DNA from: Syntrophaceae bacterium UBA1411
GTDB lineage: Bacteria; Desulfobacterota; Syntrophia; Syntrophales; Smithellaceae
DNA: 61,121 bases
Reading direction: 5' to 3'
Assembly (NCBI GenBank): GCA_002304995.1
Contig: DBPV01000097.1
Coordinates: forward strand, 7,434-68,554
In this document: piece by piece, positions 10,288 to 47,918 of the stretch
Numbering within the stretch: the first letter of the stretch is position 1
Layout: each line of letters opens with the position of its first letter
The notes under the pieces: generated by a model
Told to the model about the DNA's origin: nothing
What the model saw: the letters and a program-made list of their open reading frames with translations, nothing else
The model's database searches: none
Position numbers and translations under genes: made by a program

Positions 10288-11589
10288 ATGAACAAAGTGT
10301 GGTGGGGCCTGCTGACGGCGGCCTTGGCCGCGGTGATAGCCGCGAGCGGCGCAGCGGCTCAGGAATACACCCTGGGCGATTTGTACCGGCAGGCGTTGAA
10401 GAATTCCGAAAAAATAAAATATGCCGAGGAAAACCTGTACATCTCACAGATGGGGCGTCGGAAAGCCTGGGCGGTTTTGATTCCCAGGGTGACGGCCTTC
10501 GGCACCTACAATCGCTTTTCCGAGGAAAAATTCACCGTCACCGGCGCGGTGATTCAGCCCGAGGTGTCCGGAACCTGGGGCATCCGCGCCGATCAGGCGT
10601 TTTCGCTCAGCATCCGCGAACTGGACGCGCTTAAAATGTCCGGTCAGATGATCACGAAAAGCGCGTACGATCTCGACGCCGCCAAGGCGGATTTTCTCCT
10701 GGCCGTGGCGTCTGCCTACTATGACGTGCTGCGGGCGAAGAAAGGCCTGGAAATCGCAGCGGCCAATATGGAGCGGCTGACCCAGTACCGCGACTCCGTG
10801 ATGAAAAGACTCAAGGTCGGCGAAGTGACGAAAACGGCGCTCCTGCGGGCCGACGGCGAATTGTCCGGCGCGCGCGCCGATTATATCCGGGCGACCAACG
10901 CCTACAAGCTGTCGCGCGCGGCGCTGACCCGCGTGACGGGGATCGAGGAAACCTTTCGTCTGAAGGACGAAAACGGAACCTCTCCGGAGCTGGACCGGTT
11001 TGACGCCCTGCGGCAGACGGCTTTTTCATTGCGGGCCGACTTGAAAAGCTACGAAATGCAGAAGATGATCGCCGAACAGCAGGTGAAGTATGCCCGGGGC
11101 GCTTTCTGGCCCACGGTCGGATTATACGCCGTTTACAACGCGGCGGATCAGAATCCGGCGACGGTGAGCCTCGTGCGCGAAAGCATTCTGGCGGGCGCAT
11201 CGCTCAATTTTCCTTTTTTTGAAGGCGGACTGCGGGTGGCCGAACTCCGGGAAGCCCAGGCCAAAGAGCGTCAGGCGCGCCTGGCGTACGACGATCTCAA
11301 AAAAAACATCGACGTCGAACTGCGCGGCGCTTATCTGGACCTGGAAACGCAGCAGGGCGCGCTTGCGTTTCTCGAGGACCAGCTCGTCTTCGCCCAGGAC
11401 AATTACAACGCCGTTTTGCGGCAGTATGAAAACGGCCTGGCGACGAGTCTGGACGTCATGGACGCCAACGCGCTGCTTCTGTCGGCGGAAAGAAACGCGG
11501 CGGAAGCCCTCTACGGCTGGCGGCTTGCCTATTTGAAAGTGAGAAAATCGAGCGGAACGCTCTTGACGTTCGTTCTGGACGGTGTTTGA
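10288..11589 (+). CDS. TolC-family outer membrane efflux protein 2
   Basis: Start re-set to ATG 10288 (MNKVWWG, signal peptide); YTLGDLYRQALKNS, VASAYYDVL, YENGLATSLDVMDA. Confidence 0.88.
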   Translation: MNKVWWGLLTAALAAVIAASGAAAQEYTLGDLYRQALKNSEKIKYAEENLYISQMGRRKAWAVLIPRVTAFGTYNRFSEEKFTVTGAVIQPEVSGTWGIRADQAFSLSIRELDALKMSGQMITKSAYDLDAAKADFLLAVASAYYDVLRAKKGLEIAAANMERLTQYRDSVMKRLKVGEVTKTALLRADGELSGARADYIRATNAYKLSRAALTRVTGIEETFRLKDENGTSPELDRFDALRQTAFSLRADLKSYEMQKMIAEQQVKYARGAFWPTVGLYAVYNAADQNPATVSLVRESILAGASLNFPFFEGGLRVAELREAQAKERQARLAYDDLKKNIDVELRGAYLDLETQQGALAFLEDQLVFAQDNYNAVLRQYENGLATSLDVMDANALLLSAERNAAEALYGWRLAYLKVRKSSGTLLTFVLDGV

Positions 11590-11670
11590 TGAGGATCGCG
11601 GTTTTGAAAAGGGCCGCAAAGAGGAGTGGAGTTTATGCGTGTTGACGGTCGTGGGTGTGAGGGAAAATCG

Positions 11671-12756
11671 ATGGTTGTTCGTTCATGGGGCTTGTGTCTG
11701 CTGACGGCGCTTGTCCTTTTGCCGGGGGTGTTTTCGCTGGCCGCCTGCTCGAAGGAAAAGCAGGCCGAGCCGGAGCGGCTGGTGAATGTCCGCGTCTGGA
11801 CCGCTGAGACGCGGACCGTTCAGCCTTACCTGGAAACAACCGGAACGTTGAAAGCCGACGAGGAAGTTCTGGTGAGCTCGGAGGTGGACGGCCTGATCAG
11901 GGACATTTACGTAGAGGAAGGGACGTCCGTCGTCCGGGGAACCCTTCTGGCCCGGATCAACGAAACCGACTATCATCTCGACGCCAAACGCGCGGACGCA
12001 ATGCTCCGCCAGGCCGAAGCGACGCTGGCCAATGCGCGCGCCGAATTCAAGAGAAAAGAAGCCCTGTACCGGGAAGAGCTCATCACGAGGCAGCAGTTTG
12101 ACGATATTTCCACGCGCGTCACGCTCGCCGAAGCCGAACTGGAGCGGGCCAGGGCGACGCAGGCGATCTCTCGGGAAAGACTGGTCCGCGCGAAAATCTA
12201 TTCTCCGCTGGTCGGCGCGGTCAAGGAAAAGCGCGTATCCGTCGGCGACTACGTGCGCAACGGAACGCCTCTGTTCCAGCTCATCAAAGTCAATCCGCTC
12301 AAGCTGGCCTTTACCGTCAGCGAGAAGGACGTCGGCGCCGTGAAAGAGGGACGGGAGGTTGTCTTCAACGTGGACGCCTTTCCCGACAGAACCTTCAAAG
12401 GCAAAATCAGCCTCCTGTATCCGCACATCGAGGAGCGCACGCGCACGCTGCAGGCGGAGGCGCTCGTTCCCAACGCCGATCGCACCCTCAAACCGGGCTA
12501 TTTCGCACGGATCAAGATTTATACCGAACGGCCCCGGGAGGCGGTTCTGGCGCCGCTGACGTCGCTCATGTACGACGGCCCCACCATCCGGCTGTTCGTG
12601 GTGAACGGCGGCAAGGCCAAAGAGCGCGTCATCAAGAGGGGAAATCCCTTCGGCGAGTACGTCGAGGTGACCGAAGGCCTGAAAGCCGGCGAGCAGGTTG
12701 TCGTCGTCGGACAGAACAACCTGTCGGAAGGGGTAAAGGTCAATGTGGCTCGCTGA
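11671..12756 (+). CDS. RND efflux periplasmic adaptor (membrane fusion protein)
   Basis: Lipoprotein-like signal (SLAAC), lipoyl halves (VSSEVDG, IYSPLVGAV), LKPGYFAR, GLKAGEQVVVVGQ. Start uncertain (11626-11671). Confidence 0.92.
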   Translation: MVVRSWGLCLLTALVLLPGVFSLAACSKEKQAEPERLVNVRVWTAETRTVQPYLETTGTLKADEEVLVSSEVDGLIRDIYVEEGTSVVRGTLLARINETDYHLDAKRADAMLRQAEATLANARAEFKRKEALYREELITRQQFDDISTRVTLAEAELERARATQAISRERLVRAKIYSPLVGAVKEKRVSVGDYVRNGTPLFQLIKVNPLKLAFTVSEKDVGAVKEGREVVFNVDAFPDRTFKGKISLLYPHIEERTRTLQAEALVPNADRTLKPGYFARIKIYTERPREAVLAPLTSLMYDGPTIRLFVVNGGKAKERVIKRGNPFGEYVEVTEGLKAGEQVVVVGQNNLSEGVKVNVAR

Positions 12757-15700
12757 TACTTCCGTCAAACGGCCGGTTTTTGCCACCATGGTCATTCTGG
12801 CGCTGGTGGTGCTGGGCGTCGTCAGTTATCCGTCCATCGGCGTGGATCTCTTTCCGAAGATTGATTTCCCCATTGTGACCATCACCACCACGCTCAAAGG
12901 CGCGAGCCCCGACGTGATGGACGTCGATGTGACCGACCGCATCGAAGGCGCCGTGAACACGATCAACGGCGTCAAGAGCATCACCTCGACCAGCTATGAA
13001 AGCTATGCCCGAACCACGATCGAGTTCGTTCTGGAGCGGGACATCGATCAGGCCGTTCAGGATGTGCGCGAGAAAGTTTCCGGGATTCGCAACAAACTGC
13101 CCGAGGACATCGATGAGCCGCGGATCGCCAAAGTGGATCCCGATGCGTCGCCGATTCTGTTTCTGAATCTTTCCGGAGATCGGTCGGTGCGCGATCTGTC
13201 CCTGTATGCCGACGAGACGCTCAAGGAACAGCTCCAGCGGATCAACGGCGTGGGCGACGTCATCTTTTACGGGCTTAGGCTCCGCCAGGTGCGCATCTGG
13301 CTGGATACGGCCAGGATGCAGGCCTATCAGATCGCTCCCGGCGATGTGGTTCTGGCTCTGAAGCGGGAAAATATCGAGCTTCCGGGCGGCCGGATTGAAA
13401 CCCAAACCAAGGAGTACACGGTCCGGATCAAGGGAGAGTTTGCCCGAATTCCGGATTTCAACGATCTGATTATCAGCTACTATAAAGGCGCGCCGGTGCG
13501 GGTTCGCGATATCGGCCGCGCGGAAGACGGCATGGAAGAAAAACGGTCGCTGGCGCGCTTTAACCGTATTCCGGCAGTCGGTATGGCGATTCAGAAACAA
13601 TCCGGCACCAACACGGTCGAAGTGGCCAACCGGGTGAAAAGTGAAATTGCGAAGATCAACAAGACACTGCCCCCCGGGATGAAGGTCAATATTGCCGTGG
13701 ACCAGTCGCTGTTTATTGTCCGTTCCATTGATGAAGTGCAGTTTCACCTGCTCATCGGCAGCCTCTTTGCCATTCTGGCCGTATTTCTCTTTTTAAAAAA
13801 TGTGCGCACGACGCTCATCAGCGCCGTGGCCCTGCCGGTGTCCGTCATCTCCACGTTTGCCCTGCTCAATGCGTTTAACTTTACCTTCAACAATATGACG
13901 ATGCTGGCGCTGTCGCTGTCGGTGGGACTGCTGATCGATGACGCGATTATTGTCATTGAAAACATTTACCGGCATGTGGAAGAAGGCATGGAACCCCGCG
14001 AGGCGGCCACCTTCGCCACGTCGGAAATCGGCCTGGCGGTCATGGCGACGACGCTGGCCATTGTGGCGATCTTTCTGCCCGTCGCTTTCATGAAGGGGAT
14101 CATCGGCCGTTTCTTCCTGCAGTTCGCGCTGACCATCGTCTTTGCGGTGCTGGTGTCTTTGCTGGTCTCCTTCACGTTGACGCCGATGATGGCGTCAATT
14201 TTTCTCAAATCGCGTCAGAAATCCATTCCCAATCCGCTGGCAGCGGTCGGTGGGTCGCTTTCCCCGCAGCCTCCGGCGGGAAAAAACATCTGGCAGAAAG
14301 CCGGTGACGCGATGGAGCGCGCCTACAAAAAGCTGGAAGCGTTTTACCGGCGCGTCCTCCAGTTCACCCTGGGCTACCGCAAGACCGTCCTCGCCGGCGC
14401 CCTGGTCGTTTTTATTTTGAGCCTGGCGCTGACGACCTTTATCGGCAAGGAATTCAACCCGCCGGAGGATCAGGGCGTTTTCATCATCCGCATGGAGGCG
14501 CCTATCGATTTTTCGGTTGAAGAGCTGGAGCGGTATTATGGAAACACCGAAGCGATGATCCAGGAACTGCCGGGAGTCAAATCCGTTTATTATGTTCAGG
14601 GTTACGGAGGCTACACCAACCGCGCGCTGATGATGGTCAACCTGGTGCCGAAAGCCCAGCGGCGGCACAGCCAGGAACAGCTGAAAAAGATGGCGCGGTC
14701 GAAATTGAACGCCATTCCGGGCATCAAAGTATCCGCTGAAGATTTTTCCGTTGTGGGAGGCGGTATCCGGAACGTGCCCATTCAGTACAGCATCCGGGGG
14801 CAGGATCTCAATGCCCTGCAGGAGTACGCGAAAAAAATTACGGCGGAGTTTTCCAAACTGCCGGGCATTGTGGACGTGGACACCTCGCTGGAAAGAGGGA
14901 AGCCGGAATTCAAGGTTTACATCGACCGCGACCGGGCGGCCAACCTGGGTGTGGACGTGGCCACCGTCGCCGAGGCGATCAATCTGCTGATCAGCGGAGA
15001 GCTGGACATCGCCCGCTACAAGGATGAACTGCGCGGCAAGCGCTACGACATCCGCGTGCGCCTCAATCCCGAGGATCGAAAAAACGAGCAGGGGCTGCGG
15101 CGCATCGCCGTGCGCGCCCGCGACGGCAAGTTGGTGGAACTGGCCAATGTGGTCAAGGTGGAGGAGAGCACGGGGCCCAGCGTCATCAACCGCGCGGACC
15201 GGCAGAGATCCATCACCGTCTTCGCCTCCCTGGAGGGGAAGCCCCTGGGGGAAGCGAAGAACGAACTCGACGCCATCGCCGCGAAAATTCTGCCGGCCGA
15301 TTATGTTCCCAAATACTACGGGATGGCTGACGTCATGCAGGAATCCTTCGTGTACCTGATTTTTGCCTTGTTCCTGGGAATTGTCATGGCGTACATGGTC
15401 CTGGCCTCCCAGTTTGAAAGCTTCATCCATCCGATTACGGTTTTGCTCTCCATGCCGCTGTCGTTTGTCGGGGCCTTCGGCGCCTTGTTTCTGACGGGGA
15501 ACACGCTCAATATTTTCAGTTTTATCGGCTTGATTCTGCTCATGGGCCTGGTGAAGAAAAACGCGATTCTGCTGGTGGACTATACCAATGTGTTGCGCGG
15601 CCGGGGCATGGCGCGGCGCGAAGCCATCCTGCAGGCGGGTCCCGTCCGGATGCGGCCGATTCTGATGACGACGTTTGCCATGGTGTTCGGCATGCTGCCC

Positions 15701-36247: not shown

Positions 36248-36488
36248 GTTCTTTTCCTCGTCTTGCTTCAATATTTGACCGATCCGGCGATGGTCGGGCC
36301 GGATCAGTCAGGCGCCTGAATTCATACCCTCGAAAATTTTTTTATGTCAAGCAAATGTACAGGAAATGCGCAATCATACGGTGAAACAAGCGTTTAGCGA
36401 GGATTCCCTGGATGGGTGTGCGGCGTTCTTTCCACTGCGAATGACCAATAGGTGCAGGGAACGGTCGCGACCGTTCCCTCATTTTTCC

Positions 36489-37220
36489 TTATTTGCGGTC
36501 GGGGTCGTAGGCGGCAGCCAGTTCCGGATGCGTTTGCAGATGCTGCTGCGCCCGTTCGACCTTCTGATCCAGCGACAACTCCTCGTCCTTTTCTATCGCC
36601 ATCAGATAAAGCAACTGGAGAGACTGTTTTTCCTCTTCGGCGTAAAAAGCGGATGCCACGTCTGCGCCGAAATACGCCAGACGCAAATCATGCATTCCTT
36701 TGAAGCGCTCGATGACTTCTTCGAGGGTTGCCGGCTGCTCGTCCGGAGGATAGCTTATTTTCACATTCCGCGTATAGTTAACGAAATAATCCAGCAGATT
36801 GGCAACCTGACGCTGCGCCGAATCGGGAAGCACCTTTGACAGCTTCTGCATTTTTTCCGCTAATTCGTCGGGTGTGTTGAGCGCGCATAACTTTTCGATG
36901 TTGAGGCGCGTTTTTTCATTGAGTACAAGATTGCCGTGCGCGTCGGCCGAAAACATGGCGTAGATTTCTTCCTTTTCAGCCGCTTCTTTTTTTTCTTTGG
37001 CCTCAGGCTGCAAGACGGCCGCAACAGCCTTGCAATCCGCGGAGCTGCATGCGGTGATCCTGTTTTCCGGCGGCTGATGCTTTGTGTGCGTGGAAAGTAC
37101 ATGCCTGGCGACGCTTCTGTACTGCGCCAGTGGCGGGGACTCGCGATCCCGCGTAAGGTAGCCTGCCGCTCCTCCGGCAACCAGCACAACCAGCAGCAGC
37201 CATATCCATTTGCCCTTCAT
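36489..37220 (-). CDS. Lipase secretion chaperone (Lif/foldase)-like protein
   Basis: N-terminal TM anchor (WIWLLLVVLVAGG), low-complexity linker, then all-helical region with LRLAYFGADVASAFYAEEE and IEKDEELSLDQK, resembling the Lif C-terminal motif; follows the hydrolase gene. Start could be 37244 or 37268. Confidence 0.65.
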   Translation of the reverse strand: MKGKWIWLLLVVLVAGGAAGYLTRDRESPPLAQYRSVARHVLSTHTKHQPPENRITACSSADCKAVAAVLQPEAKEKKEAAEKEEIYAMFSADAHGNLVLNEKTRLNIEKLCALNTPDELAEKMQKLSKVLPDSAQRQVANLLDYFVNYTRNVKISYPPDEQPATLEEVIERFKGMHDLRLAYFGADVASAFYAEEEKQSLQLLYLMAIEKDEELSLDQKVERAQQHLQTHPELAAAYDPDRK

Positions 37221-37297
37221 GAAGCTTGCTTTCTCGATGAGCATGGGAAGAATATTCTCCTTTGTCAAGTGTCCCGATCTTTGGCCGAGGGCGGCAC

Positions 37298-37330
37298 AAA
37301 CGCGCCGGATCGGGGCGATCCGGCGCGTTT
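37298..37330. other. 15-bp perfect hairpin between the hydrolase and chaperone genes (partial terminator or mRNA stabiliser)
   Basis: AAACGCGCCGGATCG-GGG-CGATCCGGCGCGTTT. Confidence 0.55.
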
Positions 37331-37352
37331 CGTGTTTCCCGTTTTCCGCCTT

Positions 37353-38195
37353 TTAATACGGACAGGTGCTCAGATATGTGTCGAACCGTGAACTGGTCGC
37401 GTAAGCCGTATGCTCGGCGCCGCACAGAAACGGCGTGTAGCGGGTGTCGCCGTCAACGAAGCGTTTGGCGAAGGCCACACCGTAGCGGCCGATGCGCTGA
37501 TCCGTGCTGTTCGGCGTAAAGTGCGTCGCGCCGTTGAGCAGGGCGTACGCTTTTTCAGGGTAGCTCAGGCTGTTGTAGAAGGGACGCGCATGCGACGCAT
37601 AGGGCGCAATGGTGTCTCCGTCCGCGCCGAAAATCATCTGGGGCACGCGCACCGAGGAGAAACTGGTATAGGTGTTCCACGGCGTCAGCGGAATGCCGGC
37701 GCGCAGCGTCGAATCGTTCGCGGAGGCGATGAGTGTGCCGCCGCCGCCCATTGAATGCCCCGCCACGGCTCGGTCAGCGGTGCGGATGCGGGCCCGGATG
37801 GTGCTGCTCGACGAGTTGAGCAGATAGCGCAGCGCCGCGGCGAGCTGCGTGGCGCGGCTTGACGGATAATCGTAGATGGTGTTCGTGTTCATGGCGATAG
37901 TCACAAATCCGTGCGTGGCCAGCCTCCGGGCAAACCAGGAAATCGAGGAGCTTGTTCCGGTAAAGCCGGGGCACACCGCAACGGCCGCATACTGTCCGGA
38001 CGTGGTCGGATAGTAGATCGTTCCGCCGCCGAACCCCGTCACCAGACTGGAGACACTGTCCGTCGACACGGCAAAAGGCCCGTCGCCGTTGAGCAGTGTC
38101 GATGTCGGCGCAGGACCGATCTCCACCGCATAAGTCATACTTACGGCCAACAGCACAGTAAAGATCGCAGACAACAACATTTTCCAAACTTTCAT
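37353..38195 (-). CDS. Secreted cutinase/PET-hydrolase-like alpha/beta hydrolase (LCC/Thermobifida type I family)
   Basis: Start ATG 38195 after GGGAGG; signal peptide; GFGGGTIYYP, PGF, LATHGFV, DYPSSRATQL, GHSMGGGG (Ser), PLTPW, GADGDTIAP (Asp), ATHFTPN (His), DGDTRYTPFLC...TCPY (disulfide). Confidence 0.93.
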   Translation of the reverse strand: MKVWKMLLSAIFTVLLAVSMTYAVEIGPAPTSTLLNGDGPFAVSTDSVSSLVTGFGGGTIYYPTTSGQYAAVAVCPGFTGTSSSISWFARRLATHGFVTIAMNTNTIYDYPSSRATQLAAALRYLLNSSSSTIRARIRTADRAVAGHSMGGGGTLIASANDSTLRAGIPLTPWNTYTSFSSVRVPQMIFGADGDTIAPYASHARPFYNSLSYPEKAYALLNGATHFTPNSTDQRIGRYGVAFAKRFVDGDTRYTPFLCGAEHTAYATSSRFDTYLSTCPY

Positions 38196-38476
38196 AAAGA
38201 ACCTCCCCCCCTTTTTTGATCGTTCTGTAAAAGTTGCTTCATAATGGCCGCCGCCCTCTATGGAGGCGGGCGGCGGCCAACACCGCGCGGACACGCATTT
38301 TAGTCGCCGTTTTCCTGGACCCATCCGTCGTCACGATGAACAAATCCACAGAAAGCTTTATGGAACCATCCCCCCCCGTGAATGCGTGATTCCTGCCGGG
38401 CAGGCAGTTATAAAAATAGACCGCCACCGGAAACAAAAGGATACGATGATCATAAAATGTGAATTTGCATTATGTA

Positions 38477-38492
38477 AGCAGGACGCATGCCA
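38477..38492 (-). promoter_or_regulatory. sigma54 (-24/-12) promoter facing the hydrolase-chaperone genes
   Basis: - strand TGGCATGCGTCCTGCT (GG-N10-GC spacing); divergent from a sigma54 activator gene. Confidence 0.75.
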
Positions 38493-38578
38493 ATGTCGCT
38501 AAATTAAATATAAGCAATCGGATTTGTTGATAAAATATTAAAGATTGCATCCGGGTAAAGTTTTTTGGTGGATAAATA

Positions 38579-38638
38579 GTTTCAAATATGTTTCACTCGA
38601 CTCACCTCAGAACTGCCATAATGATACTTATTTGATAC
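38579..38638. promoter_or_regulatory. Candidate enhancer (UAS) half-sites for the adjacent sigma54 activator
   Basis: GTTTCA at 38579 and 38590, TGATAC at 38622 and 38633 (each pair 11 bp apart), about 90-145 bp upstream of the -24 element. Confidence 0.45.
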
Positions 38639-38675
38639 TGCGGCACGGCCGGGAAACAAATAAGGAAGGTCAGAT

Positions 38676-40835
38676 ATGGAGAATCTGAATACCGACACCA
38701 TCACCAAGGAAAAGTCCAAAGCAGACGACGCGCGTCCGGGTCATCAGGGAAGCGATTCCCCGCTGGACTTTTACAAAATGTTCAACGGCGAAGTCGATCT
38801 GGAAAAGGGCGTTACTCCCCAGGAGGTCCTGCGGGCGTGGCTGGCATTCAAGGAGCTCACGCTTGGCGAGTGGAATGCGTTTGTCAGCGGCGCGGAAAAA
38901 ATCGACACGTCCGTTGTTCCGCCGCTGATTTTTAAAAGCTGGCAGCGCAGCCGGGAATACGGCATCAATCCCCGCGGAGCACTGAACAATGAGATTCTGG
39001 CGGGCCGGGCCCTTGAGGAGCTGTTTCAAAACAACCGGCTGCTCATCGATATCAGTCAGCCTTTCCTGGACAGGCTTTACAAATCCATGACGACCAGCAG
39101 TTTCACCGTGTCGCTCTCCGACAAAAACGGCTACATTCTGAAGGTCATGCAGGATGAAAAGTACGTGGACCTCCACCGGCAGTTCAACTGGCGCCCCGGC
39201 GCGCTTTGGACGGAGGAATGCTGCGGCACCAACACCATCGGGACTCTGCTGAAGCAGAAAAAGCCGCTGCAGATCATCGGCGCCCAGCATTACAAGCAGA
39301 TCTTCCATTTTCTGGCCACGTCGAGCGCGCCGATTATCGATCCGGAAGGCGAGGTCATCGGCGGCATCAGCATCATTTCTCTTTTATTCGGCGCGCACCC
39401 GCACACGCTGGGCATGGCCATCGCCGCCGTACACGCCATTGAAAACGAGCTGAGACTCCGCAAAGCGCTGGACCGCCTGCAGAGCGCCTTTTCCGAAACG
39501 GACATTGCCTACAGCCTGCAAAAGGCGATCATCGCCTCCATTCCCGAAGCGTTGATCGCCGTCAACACCGCGGGAAAAATCACCGCCGTCAACGCGCGCG
39601 CGCAAAAGCTGTTCGGGCTGGAAAACAGCGCCGTCGCGGGTGAGCCTCTGGAAGCCGTCTTTCCCGAAGAAGCCAACCGGCGCTTCTGGAATTTGATCAA
39701 CCGTCGGGATCCGCTGACGGACAGAGAGGTTCGCCTTTATTCTTCCAGGGGATCCGGCGACTTTACGCTGACGTGCAGCAGCATTTATTCGTCGGGCGGA
39801 ACGGCCGCGGGCAGGATACTCCTTTTTTCGGAAATCCAGAGAATCAAATCCCTGGTGAACAAATTTGCCGGCGCCAAGGCCAACCTGAAATTTTCCGATA
39901 TTCACGGCCGCAACGAGCAGCTGCGACGGATCATTGACGAAGCCCATGTGATTTCCAAAAGTGCGTCCAACGTGCTTCTGCTGGGCGAAAGCGGCACGGG
40001 CAAAGACATTCTGGCCCAGGCCATTCACAACGCCAGCCCGCGCCGGGACGGCCCGTATGTGGCCATCAACTGCGCGGCGATCCCCCGCGATCTGATGGCG
40101 AGCGAACTGTTCGGCTACGCCGAAGGGGCGTTCACGGGCTCGCGTCGCGGCGGCAGCCAGGGGAAATTTGAAATGGCCGACGGCGGCACGATTTTTCTGG
40201 ACGAAATCGCCGAAATTCCGCTGGACATCCAGGCGGTGCTCTTGCGCGTGATTGAAGACAAGTGCGTGCTGCGCATCGGTTCCAACCAGATCCGGACGGT
40301 CGATGTGCGGATTGTCTGCGCGACAAACAAAAACCTGATTGAGGAGGTGAACCGGGGAAGCTTTCGCAGGGACCTCTATTACCGCCTGAATGTTTTCAAC
40401 ATCCATCTGCCGCCGCTGCGCGAAAGGAAGGACGACATTCCGCTGCTCGCGGAAGCGTTTGTGAAAAAATGCGCCTGTGCCCTGGGCAAGACCATCGCCG
40501 GCGTCGATGATAAGGTGCTGGAGTTTTTTGTGCATTATTCCTGGCCCGGCAACGTGCGGGAGCTGCAGAATGTCGTGGAGCGCATGGTGAATTACGCCGC
40601 TTCGGACCGCCTGACGTTCGATCTGGTTCCACGGGAAATTGCCGGCATCGACCGGTCAAAATCCACGTCCTTCGATCTGGTGGCGCCCGATGAAACGGAG
40701 AAGAATCTCATCGGCCGGATGCTGGCTTTGAAATTCAGCAAAGTCCAGATCGCCCGCAAACTCAACATCTCCCGGGCGACGCTTTTTCGCAAATTGAAAA
40801 AGCACGGCTTGGCCGGAAAACCGTCCGGCGATTAG
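38676..40835 (+). CDS. sigma54-dependent enhancer-binding protein (GAF-PAS-AAA+-Fis HTH, AcoR-like)
   Basis: IFKSWQRS GAF, GTNTIG, GESGTGKD, ELFGYAEGAFTGS, FLDEI, FRRDLYYRLN, WPGNVRELQN, C-terminal ISRATLFRKLKK. Confidence 0.95.
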   Translation: MENLNTDTITKEKSKADDARPGHQGSDSPLDFYKMFNGEVDLEKGVTPQEVLRAWLAFKELTLGEWNAFVSGAEKIDTSVVPPLIFKSWQRSREYGINPRGALNNEILAGRALEELFQNNRLLIDISQPFLDRLYKSMTTSSFTVSLSDKNGYILKVMQDEKYVDLHRQFNWRPGALWTEECCGTNTIGTLLKQKKPLQIIGAQHYKQIFHFLATSSAPIIDPEGEVIGGISIISLLFGAHPHTLGMAIAAVHAIENELRLRKALDRLQSAFSETDIAYSLQKAIIASIPEALIAVNTAGKITAVNARAQKLFGLENSAVAGEPLEAVFPEEANRRFWNLINRRDPLTDREVRLYSSRGSGDFTLTCSSIYSSGGTAAGRILLFSEIQRIKSLVNKFAGAKANLKFSDIHGRNEQLRRIIDEAHVISKSASNVLLLGESGTGKDILAQAIHNASPRRDGPYVAINCAAIPRDLMASELFGYAEGAFTGSRRGGSQGKFEMADGGTIFLDEIAEIPLDIQAVLLRVIEDKCVLRIGSNQIRTVDVRIVCATNKNLIEEVNRGSFRRDLYYRLNVFNIHLPPLRERKDDIPLLAEAFVKKCACALGKTIAGVDDKVLEFFVHYSWPGNVRELQNVVERMVNYAASDRLTFDLVPREIAGIDRSKSTSFDLVAPDETEKNLIGRMLALKFSKVQIARKLNISRATLFRKLKKHGLAGKPSGD

Positions 40836-40976
40836 CCAGGCGCCCCAACGCCACGGCCGCCGGCGGCGCAATACGCCGGGTGCCCGCATGAGCCGCTTTG
40901 CCGGATTGCACAGCGGCAGCCGGAATCCTTTGGGCGGGATGATCGTTCGGCCGGCGCCCGGAAAGCGGTGCAATGT

Positions 40977-41918
40977 CTATCGTTTGTTTTTTCTTCGGAG
41001 GTATTGGTTCATTTGCGGCGGATCAAGCTCGATCCAGTCCACCTTTTGAAGCAGCGTCCATTCGGCGTCCGTGTAGCCGCGGTCCTTATTGTAGGTAAAG
41101 ACGCCGACAAACTTCACCTTGCGGGATTTTTTCCAGTATTCCGCAAGGTCGGGATTCGCAAAGAAAATGTCGTCCTGGATCAGAATGAAGTCGAGCGGGT
41201 GTTCCTTTTTGCCCAGAAAGCCCAGGAAAAAAGTAAATTTGCTGATTGGGGTAATGTCGACGGATGAATAGTGATGGCTGAGAAAGCGGAGGCCCCAGTG
41301 GTCGTTGAAGACCAGCCCCCCCACCATGCACTCCGGGCAGACGGCCTTGAGCGGATCAATATTATTGGCGAAAAAGGATGACGCGAACACGTGATCCTGA
41401 AATCCGTAGGTTTTGATCATTTCGCCCACCCACCGCGCAAAGGCTTCGACATGTTTGCCTTCTTCTTTCATGTCCAGGGAAACCATCGGGACAATTCCCT
41501 GTGCTTTTTTCTCCTGAATAAGTTCAAACAATTCCACAACCGTCAGAAAGGGCTGCGGCGGCAGATTGGGATTGGCGGCGTTGGGCGGAATTTTGGCATA
41601 GCTGTCGTATTTTTCGCTGAAAGCGCCGGGAAGTCCCGTGGCGCGTTTCATCAGATAGTCGTGTGAAACCAGACCGATCCGGTTTCCATTGGCGTCGACG
41701 AAATCGATGATGTCCAGTTCGATATTGGGATTGCCGGATTCCAGCGCTTTGGAAAGAGCCGCTTTTGAGTTTTCCTGGGCGAAGGACGCATCGCCGCGGT
41801 GCCAGCCGGCTGCCGGGAAGTTGAAAGCCGTGCCTTCTCCGCAGAGAAAAATAAAGAACGAAACCGTCAAGACGAGCGCCATCCCGGCTTTTCCTGTCCA
41901 TTTGCTGAAAGTCTTCAT
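40977..41918 (-). CDS. Glycerophosphodiester phosphodiesterase-like secreted protein
   Basis: Signal-like N-terminus; HRG...QENS...IELDI...HD, LDMKE, FASSF, typical of GDPD. Start re-set to 41918. Confidence 0.7.
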   Translation of the reverse strand: MKTFSKWTGKAGMALVLTVSFFIFLCGEGTAFNFPAAGWHRGDASFAQENSKAALSKALESGNPNIELDIIDFVDANGNRIGLVSHDYLMKRATGLPGAFSEKYDSYAKIPPNAANPNLPPQPFLTVVELFELIQEKKAQGIVPMVSLDMKEEGKHVEAFARWVGEMIKTYGFQDHVFASSFFANNIDPLKAVCPECMVGGLVFNDHWGLRFLSHHYSSVDITPISKFTFFLGFLGKKEHPLDFILIQDDIFFANPDLAEYWKKSRKVKFVGVFTYNKDRGYTDAEWTLLQKVDWIELDPPQMNQYLRRKNKR

Positions 41919-42136
41919 GAGTCGCCTCCGCCGCTTTATTTGTTTTGATGAGATGCCTGCCGAAAAAAATTCAGTTCTTTTCACACGGCATGGTGATGCA
42001 TGGAAATGGATATTTGTTGAAGGAAGTGATTAAAACAGTATCCGAAAAGAGTCAATGGAAATGTAACCGGAAGAAAGATTTTACTCCATCTCCCACCGAT
42101 CCTTTTTTATTTTTGCGGCTGCTTTTCATTCGGGAG

Positions 42137-42164
42137 AAAAAAAAGAGGAACCGTGCGGTTCCTC
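42137..42164 (-). terminator. Rho-independent terminator of the beta-oxidation operon
   Basis: GAGGAACC-GTGC-GGTTCCTC stem with an A8 tract on + (T8 on -), 27 nt past the acyl-CoA dehydrogenase stop. Confidence 0.8.
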
Positions 42165-42191
42165 CTTTTCCGGTGAAATTTTAAATGTCGC

Positions 42192-44030
42192 TTAGACGGC
42201 AAAGGCGTCTTCAGCGATGTTCATGGCGCTCTGTTCGTCCTTCTTGATCGAGTCCAGCTTGGCCGGGACCAGCGCGGTGATGCGGTTGATAAAGAATTTC
42301 GCCCCCTGGATTTTGCCGTTGTAGAACGCTTTGTCCCTGTCGTTTGCGGCATTGGCCAGGCCCTTGGCGGCGGCGTTGGCCATCCAGACATGCAGCCAGC
42401 CCACGAGCGCGTCGGACAGGCAGTTGAGGTAATCGGCGGCGCCGATGAGCGGAACGTAAGGCGTGGTTTTCATCATCTTGGCAAATTCCATGGCCGCTCC
42501 GGCGCAGGCGTTGAGCGCGCCTTCCACAACGGCGGCTTCAGCTGCTAAAGCGTCGGATTTCTTGGCTTCGGCAATCGCCGCCTGGGTGAGCCCCAGAAGG
42601 TTCATGAAATACAATCCCTTCTTCATTCCGAGTTTGCGTCCCAGGAGATCCATGGCCTGAATGCCGTTGGTGCCTTCGTAAATCAGGTTGATCTTCTGGT
42701 CGCGCATCATCTGTTCGACCGGATATTCGCGGCAGAAGCCGTAGCCGCCGTAGGTCTGCACGGCCAGCTGGCAGACGTCCATCCCCATTTCCGTGCAGTA
42801 GGATTTGACCATCGGGGTGAGCATCTCGATCATGCCGTGCCAGTATTCCTTGTCCTGCTCATTGTTTTCGGCATGGGCATTCATTTCCTTGTCCATGGCA
42901 TAGTAGCAAAGGAAGGCCAGCGCGCGGATGCCTTCCGTGACGGACTTCTGCCGAAGCAGCATGCGGCGGACGTCCGGATGCTGGATGATGGGAACCTGGG
43001 GCGCTTTTTCGTCCTTCATGGCTACGGAGATGATGTTCTGGCCCTGGAGGCGCTGCTTGGCGTAGTCGAGCGCGTGCAGGTAAGCCGCCATCGCGAGCGA
43101 AACGCCCATCATGCCGACGCCCTGGCGTTCTTCGTTCATCATCTGGAACATGATTTTCATGCCGGCGCGCTCTTCACCCATGAGGTAGCCGATGCATTTG
43201 CCGTTTTCGCCGAAGTTGAGCGTGCAGGTGGCGTTGCCGTGGATGCCCATTTTGCTTTCGATGCCGCCGCAGTTGACGTCGTTGGGTTCGCCCAGTTCGC
43301 CTTTCTCGTTGATGCGGATTTTGGGCACGACAAAAATGGAAATGCCCTTGGTGCCGGAAGGATCGCCTTCAATGCGGGCCAGCACCGGATGGATGATGTT
43401 TTCGGCCAGGTCATGGTCGCCGGCGGAAATGAAGCACTTGGTGCCGGTGATGGAGTAGGTTCCGTCCGCATTCCTTTTGGCGGTCGTCTTCAGCGCGCCC
43501 ACGTCGGAGCCGGCGCTGGGTTCGGTGAGGCACATCGTGCCGCCCCACACGCCCGTGTACATCTTTTCGAGAATAACCTGGCGCAGAGGATGCTGGAAGA
43601 AGTCTTCCACCAGACGCGCCGCGCCGTGGGTCAGTCCCGCGTACATCAAAAAGGCCTGGTTGGTGGCCAGGAACATGTGGTAGCAGGACGCCCCGATGAT
43701 CTGCGGGAAGACCTGTCCCCCGACTTCGGCCGAATCGGATACGGACATCCAGCCGCCCTCGTTATAGAGTTTCCAGAGACGATGATAGGCTTCCGGCGCA
43801 AAGACTTTGCCGTCCTTGAACACCGCTTCAACGGGTTTGCGATGAACTTCATCCGGATAGGTGGGGGCGATGTCGTTCTCGGCGAATTTCTGCGCCTGAT
43901 CGAGCACCATGTTGCACATATCGGCGTCATGATCGGCATAGCGGCCCTTGCCCAGAATCGTTTCTCCGATATTGAAAACCTCATACAGCTGAAATTTGAT
44001 ATCTCTTTCATCAATCCACAAACTAGCCAT
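42192..44030 (-). CDS. Acyl-CoA dehydrogenase (long form, FadE5-like)
   Basis: GTMCLTEPSAGSDVG, ITGTKCFIS, KGISIFVVPK, KMGIHGNATC, QMMNEER, GGYGFCREYPVEQ, IYEGTNGIQAMDL. Confidence 0.95.
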   Translation of the reverse strand: MASLWIDERDIKFQLYEVFNIGETILGKGRYADHDADMCNMVLDQAQKFAENDIAPTYPDEVHRKPVEAVFKDGKVFAPEAYHRLWKLYNEGGWMSVSDSAEVGGQVFPQIIGASCYHMFLATNQAFLMYAGLTHGAARLVEDFFQHPLRQVILEKMYTGVWGGTMCLTEPSAGSDVGALKTTAKRNADGTYSITGTKCFISAGDHDLAENIIHPVLARIEGDPSGTKGISIFVVPKIRINEKGELGEPNDVNCGGIESKMGIHGNATCTLNFGENGKCIGYLMGEERAGMKIMFQMMNEERQGVGMMGVSLAMAAYLHALDYAKQRLQGQNIISVAMKDEKAPQVPIIQHPDVRRMLLRQKSVTEGIRALAFLCYYAMDKEMNAHAENNEQDKEYWHGMIEMLTPMVKSYCTEMGMDVCQLAVQTYGGYGFCREYPVEQMMRDQKINLIYEGTNGIQAMDLLGRKLGMKKGLYFMNLLGLTQAAIAEAKKSDALAAEAAVVEGALNACAGAAMEFAKMMKTTPYVPLIGAADYLNCLSDALVGWLHVWMANAAAKGLANAANDRDKAFYNGKIQGAKFFINRITALVPAKLDSIKKDEQSAMNIAEDAFAV

Positions 44031-44061
44031 AGAAACATCCTCCTTCCATTGTTAATAAGAA

Positions 44062-44109
44062 GTAGAGAACGGTCTTGTGACCTTCAGGTCATCACAAGCC
44101 GTTCCCTAC
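44062..44109. repeat. GTAG-type REP-like palindrome (REPIN-like doublet)
   Basis: GTAGAGAACGG-TCTTGTGA-CCTTCAGGTCA-TCACAAG-CCGTTCCCTAC: long inverted repeat starting GTAG and ending CTAC, intergenic. Confidence 0.55.
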
Positions 44110-44166
44110 AGAGTTATAATGTCACGGGTAATCTCAATGTGAACTGATTTCACTCATGACAGCATG

Positions 44167-46248
44167 CTATTTTTCTATTGCCAGAAATCCGTTCGGGTGG
44201 AAGTCGCTCCCCGTCACCTTTTTCGAAATGCCTTTCTGGTCCAGGAAGGGAGTAATCCCGCCCATGAACAACGGCCAGCCGGCGCCCATGATGACGCCGG
44301 TGTCAATATCTTTCGGACTTGCCACGACGCCTTCCTTGAGGATGATGTCGACTTCCACGGCGATGCGTTCCAGCACGCGCTGCCGTATTTCGTCGTCGGT
44401 GAATTTCTTGTTGCCCTGCGGCCAGCCCGCCAGAATTTCGGGATCGACGGCGACGCCCTTGTCCGTCAGGATCAGGATGGCTTTCTTTCCCTTGGCCACC
44501 AGATTCTTGAGGCCCTCATTCACCTTAAACCGGTCCGGCCACGCTTTGTTCAGGGTTTCGAGCACGTGCAGGGAGATGGCGGGCCCGACGAGCGCGGTCA
44601 GGGTGAAAGGCGACATGGGGAAGCCCATCTCGTGAATGGCCATGTCCGTCTGCAGGAAATCGGCCCCTTCGTCGAGCACGCGGAAGATGCCGTCCGACAT
44701 GGCCGTCAGAACGCGGTTCACGAGGAAGCCGGGGGCGTTTGCCACCAGGACCGGCGTCTTCTTGATCTTTTTGGCAATGTCGAAAGCCGTGGCCAGGACG
44801 ACATCGCTGGTCTTGTCCGTTTTAATGATCTCAACCAGCGGCATCATCGCGATGGGATTAAAGAAGTGGAACCCGACCACGCGGGACGGATCTTTCAGGA
44901 ATTTGCCCATCTCGGCGACATCGAGAGACGAGGTGTTGGTCAGGAACATGCATTCGGGTTTGCAGGCAGCTTCCAGATCCCCGAAGACCTTTTGTTTTAC
45001 GGACATCTCTTCGAAAACCGCCTCGATGACGAAGTCGCAATCCTTGAATTCATCATAGGATATCGTTCCGGTGATGAGTTCTTCGCCCATCCACTTGGCT
45101 TCGGCCTCGGAAAGTTTACCTTTCTTCGCCGTCTTCGCCAGCTGATCCCGGACGTAGGCCAGACCTTTGTCCACAAATTCCTGCTTGATGTCCTTCATGA
45201 TCACCGGGCACTGGTAGCGCTGGGCAAACAAAAGCGCCATCTGGGAGGCCATGAGGCCGGCGCCGATGACGCCGATCTTGGCGATCTTGTTGCCTTTGAC
45301 TTCTTTGGGCGGCCGGCCGGGAAGCTTCTTGGCGCGGCGCTGGGTGAGGTCAAACGAGTAAATGCCGCACTTGAACTGATCGGAGGTGATCATGTCGGCC
45401 AGCGCTTCATTCTCTTTCTGGAATCCTTCATCGAGCGACCAAACGCCCGCTCCCTTGATAAGTTCCAGCGCGCGGTAGGGTGCTAATGCGCCCGAATGAA
45501 CCCTGCCGACAATCATTGCTTTGGTCTTGTTGTAGAGCTCGTCGCTCATCTTTGGATCGACCGCCTTGCGCTCGATCTTTTCTTCGCCGGTGATGATGCG
45601 TTCCAGCAACGCCAGGGATTCGTCCACAAACTCCGCCGGTGCGATCAGTCTGTCCGCCAGACCCATTTCAAAGGCCTTTACGGAATTGATCATTTTGTTC
45701 ATGTTGAGCGGATTGGAGATGACGAGTTCGATGGCGACCTGCGGTCCGCAAAGTTTGGTGACCAGCTGCGTTCCGCCCCAGCCCGGCACGAGGCCCAGGA
45801 AGCACTCGGGGAGCGCATAATGATCGCATCCGCCCGGGCTTTTGGAGATGGTGCGGTAGTTGTGGTAAAGTCCGACCTCGACGCCGCCGCCCATCGTGGC
45901 GCCATTGTATGCGGCCAGTGTCGGAATCTTGAGCCCCATGATGCGTTTGAAGGTCTGATGCCCCGCGGCGCCGATTTCGAGGGCCGCCTGCTTCGTTGCA
46001 TTCGGATCGGCGCTCATGATGTCGGCGCCGACATTGAAAATGAAAGGCTTGCCGGTCAGGAACCAGCCCTTGACATCCTTATCCTTCTCTACGACGTCGA
46101 TGACTTTATTGAGCGACTCCAGGGCCTCAACGCCCCAGGTATTGGGGATGTTGGGAAACTGCCCGTTGTCCATCGTGACGATCGCTATCTTGCCCGCCTT
46201 CTTTGACTGAAAGAAGTTTAATTTACATTCCGTTATGTATTTAGCCAT
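44167..46248 (-). CDS. fadB: Fatty-acid oxidation multifunctional enzyme (enoyl-CoA hydratase + 3-hydroxyacyl-CoA dehydrogenase)
   Basis: GGGVEVGL and LPECFLGLVPGWGGTQ (two catalytic Glu); VIGAGLMA, IEAVFEE, TNTSSL, GFHFFNP, PGFLVNR. Confidence 0.9.
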   Translation of the reverse strand: MAKYITECKLNFFQSKKAGKIAIVTMDNGQFPNIPNTWGVEALESLNKVIDVVEKDKDVKGWFLTGKPFIFNVGADIMSADPNATKQAALEIGAAGHQTFKRIMGLKIPTLAAYNGATMGGGVEVGLYHNYRTISKSPGGCDHYALPECFLGLVPGWGGTQLVTKLCGPQVAIELVISNPLNMNKMINSVKAFEMGLADRLIAPAEFVDESLALLERIITGEEKIERKAVDPKMSDELYNKTKAMIVGRVHSGALAPYRALELIKGAGVWSLDEGFQKENEALADMITSDQFKCGIYSFDLTQRRAKKLPGRPPKEVKGNKIAKIGVIGAGLMASQMALLFAQRYQCPVIMKDIKQEFVDKGLAYVRDQLAKTAKKGKLSEAEAKWMGEELITGTISYDEFKDCDFVIEAVFEEMSVKQKVFGDLEAACKPECMFLTNTSSLDVAEMGKFLKDPSRVVGFHFFNPIAMMPLVEIIKTDKTSDVVLATAFDIAKKIKKTPVLVANAPGFLVNRVLTAMSDGIFRVLDEGADFLQTDMAIHEMGFPMSPFTLTALVGPAISLHVLETLNKAWPDRFKVNEGLKNLVAKGKKAILILTDKGVAVDPEILAGWPQGNKKFTDDEIRQRVLERIAVEVDIILKEGVVASPKDIDTGVIMGAGWPLFMGGITPFLDQKGISKKVTGSDFHPNGFLAIEK

Positions 46249-46260
46249 AATATGAGCCTC

Positions 46261-47472
46261 CTAGATTGTTTTCCCGACTACGTTTTCCCAAATGATCGAA
46301 CCGCCCATGCCCAGGCCCACGCACATGGTGGTGAGTCCGTACCTGGCTTTCGGATTCAACTCGAAATCCTGCGCCAGCTGCATGCTCAGGCGGACGCCGG
46401 AGCTGGCCAGCGGATGACCCATGGCAATGGTTCCGCCGTAAGGATTGAGTCTGGGATCTTCCGGAGTCTTCATGCCGAAGTGCTTCATGAAGCCGACCGC
46501 CTGCACGGCAAAGGCTTCGTTGAGTTCAATGATGTCGAGATCCTCGAATTTCATGCCGTAGTTTTTCAGAACCTTTTCCGTGGAGGGAACCGGTCCCCAT
46601 CCCATGACGGACGGATCGACGCCGACGAAGGCGGCGCCCACAAACTTCATCTTGGGTTTGATGCCGAGCTCTTTGCATTTTTTACCGGACATCAGAAGCG
46701 ACACGCAGGCGCCGTCGTTCAATCCCGAGGCATTCGCCGCGGTGACATGACCTTCCGCTTTGAAGGGGAACTTCCGGAGGCCTTTGATGCTCTCCAGGGT
46801 GGTTCCGCGTTTGGCCTGTTCATCACGGTCGGCAACTCTCCACCCCGTGGGGGAGAATACCGTCATATTGACGCAGTGCTTATCGTAGTAGCCGGCATCC
46901 AGTGCCTTGAAGTATCTTTCCAGGACATGGAAAGCATACTCATCCGCCTCGTCTTTGGTGACCGGCTGTTCGCCATGTTCAGGCATCCAGTCATGCAGCT
47001 TTTCGGCCGTGTTGCCCATGTTAAAGTATTTCGGTTCCACCATTTTCTCGGTAACGATCCTGGGATTCGGATCAGCACCCGCCCCCATGGGGTGGTGGGC
47101 CATGTGTTCCACACCGCCGGCAATGATCATATCGGCAACGCCTGTTCTGATATAGGACGAGCCGATGCTCTGACAGGTCATGCCGCCCGCGCACATCCGG
47201 TCCACGGAGAATCCCGCCACGGTTTCCGGCAGGCCTGACGTGAAGACAACGGTTCTGCCCATCGTGGTTCCCTGATCTCCGACCTGCGTCGTTGCGCCCA
47301 TGATACAATCATCCACCTCTCCCCATGGAACGGCAGGATTTCTTCTCACAAGCTCTTTTATGACTTTTGTAACCATGTCATCCGCACGCGTGTACCAGTA
47401 GAAACCGTCCTGTCTGGCTTTTCCGAACCATGTCCGCACGCCGTCTACAAAATACGCATCTCTTAAATCCAT
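46261..47472 (-). CDS. fadA: Acetyl-CoA C-acyltransferase (3-ketoacyl-CoA thiolase)
   Basis: DRMCAGG, NASGLNDGA, ELNEAFA, GHPLASSG, TMCVGLGMG. Confidence 0.93.
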   Translation of the reverse strand: MDLRDAYFVDGVRTWFGKARQDGFYWYTRADDMVTKVIKELVRRNPAVPWGEVDDCIMGATTQVGDQGTTMGRTVVFTSGLPETVAGFSVDRMCAGGMTCQSIGSSYIRTGVADMIIAGGVEHMAHHPMGAGADPNPRIVTEKMVEPKYFNMGNTAEKLHDWMPEHGEQPVTKDEADEYAFHVLERYFKALDAGYYDKHCVNMTVFSPTGWRVADRDEQAKRGTTLESIKGLRKFPFKAEGHVTAANASGLNDGACVSLLMSGKKCKELGIKPKMKFVGAAFVGVDPSVMGWGPVPSTEKVLKNYGMKFEDLDIIELNEAFAVQAVGFMKHFGMKTPEDPRLNPYGGTIAMGHPLASSGVRLSMQLAQDFELNPKARYGLTTMCVGLGMGGSIIWENVVGKTI

Positions 47473-47783
47473 ACATCCTCCTTGCTATGCCTGTTTATTA
47501 ACTCCTGCACAGAGATCATCCGTTACGGTGAGGCCTCCTGCGCCTCTGAGTTTTGCAGAACGCCATCCGGCGAATCCCGGTGCGATGTCACAATTCAGAT
47601 CAAACGATCAATCCGCCGGCAGCAAACCTCGTTGCTGTGCGGCTGGAGAAGCATTGGGCGGTTGACCTCAGCGGTCATCAATAAAAAAATCTAAAAGCTT
47701 TTGATTTCCTGTCGTTGCTTGCGAACCGATTATTGATACAGAATCATTTTCATCAGTTGGAAAGCCTTGTCGCTCGCAGTACT

Positions 47784-47799
47784 AGCATTCATCGTGCCA
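47784..47799 (-). promoter_or_regulatory. sigma54 (-24/-12) promoter of the fadA-fadB-ACAD operon
   Basis: - strand TGGCACGATGAATGCT (TGGCAC-N5-ATGCT). Confidence 0.85.
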
Positions 47800-47883
47800 G
47801 ACAGAGGTGCTTTTATATGTCATTAATTTAATGCGGAATTTTTTAGCCTTCCGAATTGCTGCATCAAAAAATGATTCATTACA

Positions 47884-47918
47884 GTCTCGATGAGACAATA
47901 ATGATGCGCCATGAGACA
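47884..47918. promoter_or_regulatory. Candidate enhancer (UAS) for a Fis-type sigma54 activator
   Basis: GTCTC-GAT-GAGAC palindrome (47884-47896) plus a second TGAGACA (47912-47918), 85-120 bp upstream of the -24 element. Confidence 0.6.

Follow-up and report, generated by a model that had tools for sequence, protein, structure and literature searches.

Regulators of the DhaR/AcoR group are typically encoded divergently from the catabolic operon that they control, and AtoC, the response regulator of atoDAEB in Escherichia coli, is the classical enterobacterial case of sigma-54 in short-chain acyl catabolism. Sigma-54 control through regulators of the NtrC family is established for the lip/lif genes of Pseudomonas, where CbrAB (P. 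aeruginosa) or LipQ/LipR (P. alcaligenes) is involved (PMC12134079), and predictions for Clostridia and Bacilli include sigma-54 regulons with genes for acyl-CoA dehydrogenase (ACAD), 3-hydroxyacyl-CoA dehydrogenase and thiolase (PMC12316311). Smithella is associated with the conversion of long-chain fatty acids and alkanes in digesters (PMC7934545), and our literature search found no paper on sigma-54 regulation in this genus. Here we describe a locus of Syntrophaceae bacterium UBA1411 that carries a hydrolase-chaperone operon and a fadA-fadB-ACAD operon, each behind a sigma-54 promoter, with the gene of a sigma-54-dependent bacterial enhancer-binding protein (bEBP) located between them.

The stretch of DNA analysed, hereafter the window, is 61,121 bp long (G000:C8:7434-68554) and belongs to a draft genome, G000, of 3.42 Mb in 148 contigs with 57.8% G+C. 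It was compared with 60 relatives, and 20 activator/hydrolase regions were inspected for gene order; all assignments given below rest on sequence comparison within one genus. A sequence-only reading of this DNA had proposed that the single activator of the locus induces both operons as one regulon. Our results argue instead for two conventional sigma-54 units, which are probably independent, neighbours by chance of lineage, and each under its own DhaR/AcoR-like one-component bEBP paralogue. The features of the two units are the following.

36489-37268, minus strand: second gene of unit 1, for a lipase chaperone of the Lif-like kind (PF03280, E 8e-11, 42.7 bits against a cut-off of 25.7)
37353-38195, minus strand: PETase/cutinase-like secreted serine hydrolase, first gene of unit 1 (PF12740, E 1e-97, 327 bits against a cut-off of 28)
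38196-38467, minus strand: 5' leader predicted for unit 1, with the start codon about 270 nt downstream of the putative transcription start site
38477-38492, minus strand: sigma-54 promoter P1, TGGCATGCGTCCTGCT
38579-38638, no strand: type-A enhancer (2+2), GTATCA-N5-GTATCA, about 26 bp, TGAAAC-N5-TGAAAC
38676-40835, plus strand: sigma-54 activator bEBP-A, with a DhaR/AcoR-like N-terminal sensor, PAS, AAA+ (GAFTGS loop) and helix-turn-helix (HTH)
42137-42165, minus strand: intrinsic terminator of unit 2, read from the sequence as GAGGAACC-GCAC-GGTTCCTC followed by T8
42192-44030, minus strand: third gene of unit 2, for a long ACAD extended at its C-terminus (PF00441, PF02770, PF12806)
44167-46248, minus strand: FadB-like enoyl-CoA hydratase/3-hydroxyacyl-CoA dehydrogenase (PF00378, PF02737, PF00725)
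46261-47472, minus strand: FadA-like acetyl-CoA C-acyltransferase, first gene of unit 2 (TIGR01930, 339 bits against a cut-off of 240.55)
47473-47774, minus strand: 5' leader predicted for unit 2, with a length of about 300 nt
47784-47799, minus strand: sigma-54 promoter P2, TGGCACGATGAATGCT
47861-47917, no strand: type-B enhancer (3+3 compact palindrome), GTCTCA-N4-GCATCA-N5-GTCTCA-TC-GAGAC-N5-TGAATC-N6-TGATGC

Sigma-54 promoters and the rpoN gene

Exact matches to TGGCAYN6TGCW occur only twice in the window, at P1 and P2. The expectation was 0.41, and since 8 of 100 shuffles also reached two matches, the motif by itself is not decisive. Genome-wide, 30 matches were observed against about 23 expected when the window rate is scaled up. 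Nine of these 30 lie behind 150 bp of at most 42% G+C, a context shared by only 1.7% of genome windows, and when the 30 were ranked by this AT-rich context P1 came first and P2 fourth. Both promoters contain the GG and GC elements with the TGGCAC-N5-TTGCW spacing, both are intergenic and point toward the hydrolase and the fadA operons, and other Smithella genomes conserve the two of them. The two -24/-12 promoters recognised by the sequence-only reading were thus confirmed as the sole strict matches of the window. P1 is identical in the closest relative, G034, and reads TGGCATACGTTATGCT at the orthologous, 67%-identical locus of G004. Upstream of fadA, the 16-mer of P2 or TGGCATGATGAATGCT, which is one base away from it, was found in G034, G027, G024 and G036, TGGCATGATGAATGCT being the form present in the last three. 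Transcription is predicted to start at about 38467 for unit 1 and about 47774 for unit 2. A sigma-70 promoter scan of the P1 and P2 regions returned no good candidate, and sigma-70 and terminator scans of three intergenic regions gave nothing informative.

The draft G000 encodes about 25 bEBPs, and rpoN is present in all 20 relatives searched. In G000 itself, an HMM search and a regular expression for the RpoN box were both negative for rpoN. A tblastn search with the RpoN of a congener located the opening 25 codons of the gene, with 96% identity, at the extreme edge of contig C26 (C26:3-77), directly after lptB. The gene is therefore broken by the assembly and not absent, which accounts for the HMM negatives, and sigma-54 is encoded by this organism.

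The hydrolase-chaperone operon and its probable activator

As listed above, the P1 enhancer consists of two pairs of half-sites, namely GTATCA at 38633-38638 and 38622-38627, which lie 146 and 135 bp upstream of the TGGCA of P1, and TGAAAC at 38590-38595 and 38579-38584, at 103 and 92 bp. These distances conform exactly to the geometry of the hydrolase-linked promoters of the genus, where the right pair is found 100-105 bp upstream of TGGCA in 12 cases and the left pair 142-147 bp upstream in nine. The type-A consensus reads GTNTCA-N5-GTNTCA, an inner spacer usually containing GTCC, and TGANAC-N5-TGANAC. Profile A, derived from the enhancers of paralogues in other genomes, matched the P1 enhancer only (E 0.002) in the 3.4 Mb of G000.

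The product of the divergent gene, bEBP-A, has a PAS domain (E 4e-10), a Sigma54_activat domain (PF00158, E 7e-66), an AAA lid and HTH matches (HTH_7, 28 bits; HTH_8, 21.7 bits). Its AAA+ domain contains the Walker A sequence GESGTGKD and the GAFTGA-type loop EGAFTGS. Of the GAF-PAS activator that had been announced between the two units, the PAS, AAA+ and HTH parts were recovered, and the GAF part appears only through alignment with DhaR. Enhancers of bEBPs are expected some 70-150 bp upstream of the promoter; the putative bEBP-A enhancer spans 92-146 bp, and this geometry is kept across paralogues.

Orthologous loci retain the architecture of the P1 region, both in G034, whose activator is 93% identical, and in G004 (67%, with diverged flanks). 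An activator gene divergent from a sigma-54 promoter that faces a secreted alpha/beta-hydrolase gene was found in G034, G004, G003, G022, G028, G041, G008 and G007, and the full set of divergent activator, type-A enhancer, sigma-54 promoter and secreted alpha/beta-hydrolase recurs at more than 12 paralogous loci in the genus, the hydrolases of the paralogous modules being PF12740, PAF-AH-like or lipase-like. Because the type-A enhancer recurs at the same distance beside these activator/secreted-hydrolase pairs, bEBP-A very probably drives P1 and with it the hydrolase-chaperone operon, a part of the earlier proposal that the recurring divergent arrangement supports. The same enhancer lies 38-97 bp upstream of the bEBP-A start codon, from which we infer that bEBP-A probably also autoregulates its own gene.

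In the proposed mechanism, bEBP-A would bind the 2+2 enhancer within the divergent intergenic region. Binding of a ligand, possibly a hydrolysis product, to the N-terminal sensor/PAS part would lead to oligomerisation of bEBP-A, looping of the DNA to the closed sigma-54 holoenzyme at P1, and ATP-driven opening. The resulting transcript, with its leader of about 270 nt, would encode the secreted esterase and the membrane-anchored chaperone, whose operon would be the only one under bEBP-A.

By sequence, the hydrolase is a member of the PET-hydrolase-like/cutinase family. It aligns to PET hydrolases and cutinases (PDB 8ety, E 8e-88) over GHSMGGGG, GDTIAP, THF and a C-terminal Cys pair, so that by comparison with 8ety the Ser-Asp-His triad and the C-terminal disulfide are in place. 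Its start, earlier placed at 38324, is most likely at 38195, which gives a protein beginning with MKVWKML and carrying the signal peptide MKVWKMLLSAIFTVLLAVSMTYA; it is this start that makes the unit 1 leader long. The leader had no Rfam match, and its fold stability was ordinary relative to shuffles (z -0.97). The close relatives of the enzyme are Smithella or Syntrophaceae sequences.

The chaperone gene lies directly downstream of that of its presumed client enzyme. Its likely start is the ATG at 37220 (MKGKWIWLLLVV...), which provides an N-terminal membrane anchor, MKGKWIWLLLVVLVAGGAAG. The PF03280 match spans residues 158-249 and covers half of the model only, and the match to NF002334 (E 2e-12, 46.6 bits) is under the equivalog cut-off of 285. 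The PETase-like/Lif-like gene pair is kept in 14 of the 18 closest non-actinobacterial loci (L064-L081), and a literature search on PETases combined with foldases found nothing relevant. Outside Smithella, the pair was seen in Steroidobacter, Aquabacterium soli, Hydrogenophaga and several gamma- and deltaproteobacterial metagenome-assembled genomes; it is not present at the actinobacterial cutinase loci of Thermobifida, Lentzea and Streptomyces. A perfect palindrome with a 10-bp stem (AGGGAACGGTCGCGACCGTTCCCT) at 36456-36479, just beyond the chaperone stop codon, is probably the terminator of unit 1.

Four other Smithella/Syntrophaceae genomes (loci L065, L066, L067 and L045) have the orthologous hydrolase-chaperone operon with no family activator adjacent to it. 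Upstream of their hydrolase genes stands TGGCAY-N6-TGT(A/G), preceded by CCACAGCCACAAAAG and (G)TGTCACAC repeats. Given this different upstream region and the missing neighbour, the control of the operon is not conserved throughout the genus.

A second enhancer class upstream of fadA

The half-sites upstream of P2 are GTCTCA at 47912-47917 and 47891-47896, GCATCA at 47902-47907, GAGAC at 47884-47888, TGAATC at 47873-47878 and TGATGC at 47861-47866, together spanning 118 to 67 bp upstream of the promoter. Half-sites of the GTNTCA/TGANAC type had been reported upstream of both promoters and are real (146-92 bp from TGGCA at P1, 118-67 bp at P2). They nevertheless form two different enhancers: GTATCA/GTTTCA in a 2+2 arrangement at P1 versus GTCTCA/GCATCA/GATTCA in a 3+3 arrangement at P2, at different distances from the promoter and with an inner spacing of about 26 bp in type A versus 2 bp at P2 (1-2 bp in other type-B enhancers). 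When the DNA upstream of P1 and of P2 was compared directly by k-mers, only short common words such as ATCATTAT emerged; the decisive comparison required loci from other genomes.

The closest counterpart of the P2 enhancer in G000 belongs to another gene of the same activator family:

G000:C75:93737-95680, divergent from a fadD-like gene: activator paralogue bEBP-B, carrying a near copy of the P2 enhancer and a sigma-54 promoter

bEBP-B shares 53% identity with bEBP-A overall; by domain, the sensors reach 43-44%, the HTH 52% and the AAA+ part 64%. The neighbour of bEBP-B resembles long-chain-fatty-acid-CoA ligases (E 5e-142). From enhancer to promoter, the regions of P2, C75 and G007:C6 form a gap-free alignment, into which P1 fits only with 24 extra bases. 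In G011, G025, G031, G036 and G026, TGGCATGATGAATGCT is also the promoter beside the fadD-linked activators, which are orthologues of the C75 activator and have the same enhancer. The type-B core, GTCTC-N3-GAGAC, begins 95-97 bp upstream of TGGCA in 11 of 11 type-B promoters.

A second profile (profile B) was trained on the enhancers of fadD-linked activators of other genomes, excluding G000 and all fadA regions. In the 3.42 Mb of G000 it found exactly two sites, C75:95793-95854 (E 1e-11) and P2 (E 3e-9), and profiles A and B never matched one locus in common. The strict type-B core had 14 matches in 61 genomes and none in a reversed control. Neighbourhoods were inspected for 13 of the 14 (all but G039:C360), and each match lay by a fadD-linked or family activator or upstream of fadA. 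Maximum-likelihood phylogeny grouped the fadD-linked activators, including the C75 gene, in a clade with 100/100 support and placed bEBP-A in the other, hydrolase-linked clade.

Gene order points the same way. The fad operon adjoins bEBP-A only in G000 and G034. In G027, G024 and G036 the type-B enhancer and promoter are kept upstream of fadA, and the best match to bEBP-A there is only 52-56% identical. No family activator was found within 60 kb of fadA in G027 and G024, where contigs are long; the G036 contig is too short to tell. Comparisons of orthologous upstream regions and of synteny had been proposed along with the single-regulon idea; the former show a conserved type-A enhancer at P1 and a distinct type-B enhancer at P2, and the latter an activator/hydrolase pairing that recurs in the genus and an adjacency of fad operon and activator confined to two genomes.

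The cognate activator of unit 2 is therefore most likely bEBP-B. Under this model, P2 with its 3+3 enhancer would drive fadA-fadB-ACAD up to the terminator at 42137-42165, and bEBP-B, with a fatty acid or acyl-CoA as its putative ligand, would govern a small beta-oxidation regulon made of the C75 fadD-like gene and this operon. The three genes are separated by 12 and 136 bp, with the terminator after the ACAD gene, as in a FadAB-type operon. The FadA and FadB equivalog cut-offs were not reached by the unit 2 proteins (FadB-like protein against NF008727, E 2e-119, under the cut-off). Orthologues of fadA at 84-98% identity are present in 12 other Smithella genomes.

Independent units, cross-talk or a single regulon

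Several observations weigh against two fully independent units. Both enhancer types are built on a GTNTCA half-site core, and bEBP-A and bEBP-B have almost the same recognition helix (ISRATLFRKLKK versus ISRATLYRKMKQ), so that binding of bEBP-A at P2 is conceivable. The E-value of profile A for the P1 enhancer is modest. In G024 and G027, a search for activators that themselves carry a strict type-B enhancer found none, and the adjacency of the units in two genomes could reflect selection for co-expression even without a common activator.

The alternative that survives best is a form of cross-talk, in which bEBP-B is the main activator of P2 and bEBP-A or other paralogues additionally recognise a part of the type-B half-sites or enter into mixed oligomers, partially coupling ester hydrolysis to beta-oxidation. 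Besides the common core and the similar HTH domains, it could draw on the outer right half-site of many type-B enhancers, TGATAC, which is the reverse complement of the GTATCA of P1, and on the radiation of the family from one ancestor, a basal member of the hydrolase clade (G027:C14) driving a fadD-like gene from a type-A-like enhancer. At P2 of G000, however, the outer site is TGATGC and not TGATAC, and enhancer geometry is strictly class-specific over more than 30 promoters. We regard such coupling as improbable.

Less probable still is the single regulon, in which the activator at 38676-40835 binds both enhancers and co-induces hydrolase, chaperone and fadA-fadB-ACAD. The location of its gene between the two units, the related half-sites and recognition helices, and the retention of the adjacency in G034 speak for this proposal. 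It is contradicted by the differences between the enhancers in half-site sequence, number, inner spacing and promoter distance, by the failure of profile A to detect P2 and of profile B to detect P1, and by the retention of the P2 enhancer in genomes that have no bEBP-A orthologue, the linkage being limited to one lineage. That one or both sigma-54 motifs are chance matches and the operons use other promoters is very improbable: the slight genome-wide excess, the long leaders of 270-300 nt and the incomplete rpoN would fit it, but both motifs and their enhancers are conserved at fixed distances across species with diverged flanks, the start of rpoN lies at a contig end, and neither region has a good sigma-70 promoter.

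Radiation of the activator-hydrolase modules

Two independent units under paralogous activators are thus our preferred reading, and the more interesting result is the radiation of activator-hydrolase modules in Smithella. One family of DhaR/AcoR-like sigma-54 activators reaches up to 14 paralogues per genome. Among the 60 relatives, G007 has 14 activators and 11 hydrolases and G041 has 14 of each, the two gene types being very often adjacent. For most paralogues, the common GTNTCA half-site grammar would provide the connection with a secreted hydrolase of their own, be it cutinase-, PAF-AH- or lipase-like, and the sister clade would control the fadD-like gene and fadA-fadB-ACAD. The activator of L014 (G027:C14:290-2266) is basal in the hydrolase clade and divergent from a fadD-like gene (69% identical to that of C75), with a type-A-like enhancer and a TGGTAT...TGCA promoter in the control region. 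This arrangement hints that the activator family began as regulators of lipid catabolism.

Tandem units were observed at L047 (about 13040-14110, G007:C30) and L052 (about 10880-11950, G041:C18). They consist of an enhancer, a sigma-54 promoter, about 100-150 nt, and a GC-rich hairpin (CTGCCGGGAG...CTCCCGGCAG) with a T-run, after which a second enhancer and promoter precede the hydrolase gene; they may represent sigma-54-dependent short RNAs or attenuators. In many secreted hydrolases of the paralogous modules (L052, L057, L047 and L063) the signal peptide is directly followed by AQWW(F/W)S(T) and 10-20 serines, sometimes twice. Such a motif, which the window hydrolase does not have, could serve as a linker, as a tract for glycosylation or as a signal for sorting. 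At G000:C40:7317-7386 there is a weak type-A-like profile match (E 2.2), 90-160 bp upstream of a strict sigma-54 motif at 7476-7491 and about 2 kb from a bEBP gene.

Matching each of the two enhancer classes with one activator clade offers a specificity model for a paralogous bEBP family, and the fadD-like gene together with fadA-fadB-ACAD would represent a small sigma-54 beta-oxidation regulon in Smithella. The many individually regulated secreted esterases, whether PETase-like, lipase-like or other, bear on the question of who hydrolyses lipids and polyesters in anaerobic reactors, and the sensor-promoter pairs could become biosensors once their ligands are known. A further idea, which we hold to be doubtful, is that paralogues sensing related lipid or ester ligands cross-talk at each other's enhancers and so form a graded network coupling beta-oxidation to substrate-specific ester hydrolysis outside the cell. 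If this were true, bacteria supposed to be secondary syntrophs would themselves carry out the primary degradation of lipids, waxes, cutin or polyesters in methanogenic settings.

Other features of the locus

Two further features lie near the units.

40977-41921, minus strand: secreted GDPD-like protein (PF03009, E 5.6e-4, under the cut-off; PDB 2pz0, E 2.4e-6)
Upstream of fadA, minus strand: DUF47 gene and RND pump, neighbouring genes

A GDPD-like secreted enzyme had been noted in the interval, and this assignment is weak but real. As the ACAD terminator precedes its gene and the gene is missing from the G034 locus, it forms a separate unit and is part of neither sigma-54 unit.

At E <= 1, the sole Rfam match between 36000 and 48700 was a chance one to CRISPR-DR inside fadA, and no riboswitch or leader family came up. 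The unit 2 leader accordingly had no relevant Rfam match, and its fold stability was ordinary relative to shuffles (z -0.58). Its fadA-proximal part of about 90 nt (47473-47560, minus strand) is conserved in 11 Smithella genomes (L144-L154), including those that lack the sigma-54 promoter. Its elements are a small hairpin (TCACC...GGTGA) and a possible anti-Shine-Dalgarno stretch, CUUCU, which might base-pair with the ribosome-binding site AAGGAGG; covariation in the consensus fold is weak (-0.51 kcal/mol).

Comparison with known systems

Unit 1 resembles the lip/lif systems of Pseudomonas in having a secreted lipolytic gene followed by a gene for a Lif-type chaperone, behind a sigma-54 promoter with an enhancer-binding protein at an upstream activating sequence, all of which is predicted here from sequence. 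The Pseudomonas systems employ a phosphorylated two-component response regulator and a family I.1/I.2 lipase, whereas unit 1 has a one-component activator, encoded divergently beside its target, and a PETase/cutinase-type enzyme. A regulator of the CbrB/LipR type was considered and rejected, bEBP-A having no Response_reg domain and no adjacent kinase gene.

In domain order bEBP-A is like DhaR and AcoR, its residues 77-713 aligning to positions 15-638 of the DhaR model (NF008485, E 2e-117). Identity with DhaR itself was rejected (393.5 bits against an equivalog cut-off of 551, with no dhaKLM or aco genes nearby), as was membership of the DhaR, PrdR, PrpR and AtoC groups in general, since bEBP-A is under all the equivalog cut-offs, including that of the AtoC model which it matches, and the gene context is wrong. 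The putative targets also differ from those of DhaR/AcoR, being secreted hydrolases or beta-oxidation genes.

A complete polymer/lipid-to-acetyl-CoA regulon under a single activator, as envisaged by the sequence-only reading, would have been a new system; this is not supported, the evidence pointing to two ordinary bEBP/sigma-54 units. Like the AtoC case and the cases from Clostridia and Bacilli, which belong to another phylum and are themselves predictions, unit 2 places acyl-CoA catabolic genes behind a sigma-54 promoter with a dedicated bEBP. It would differ from both in its GAF-like/PAS one-component activator, its linkage to a fadD-like gene and its 3+3 palindromic enhancer.

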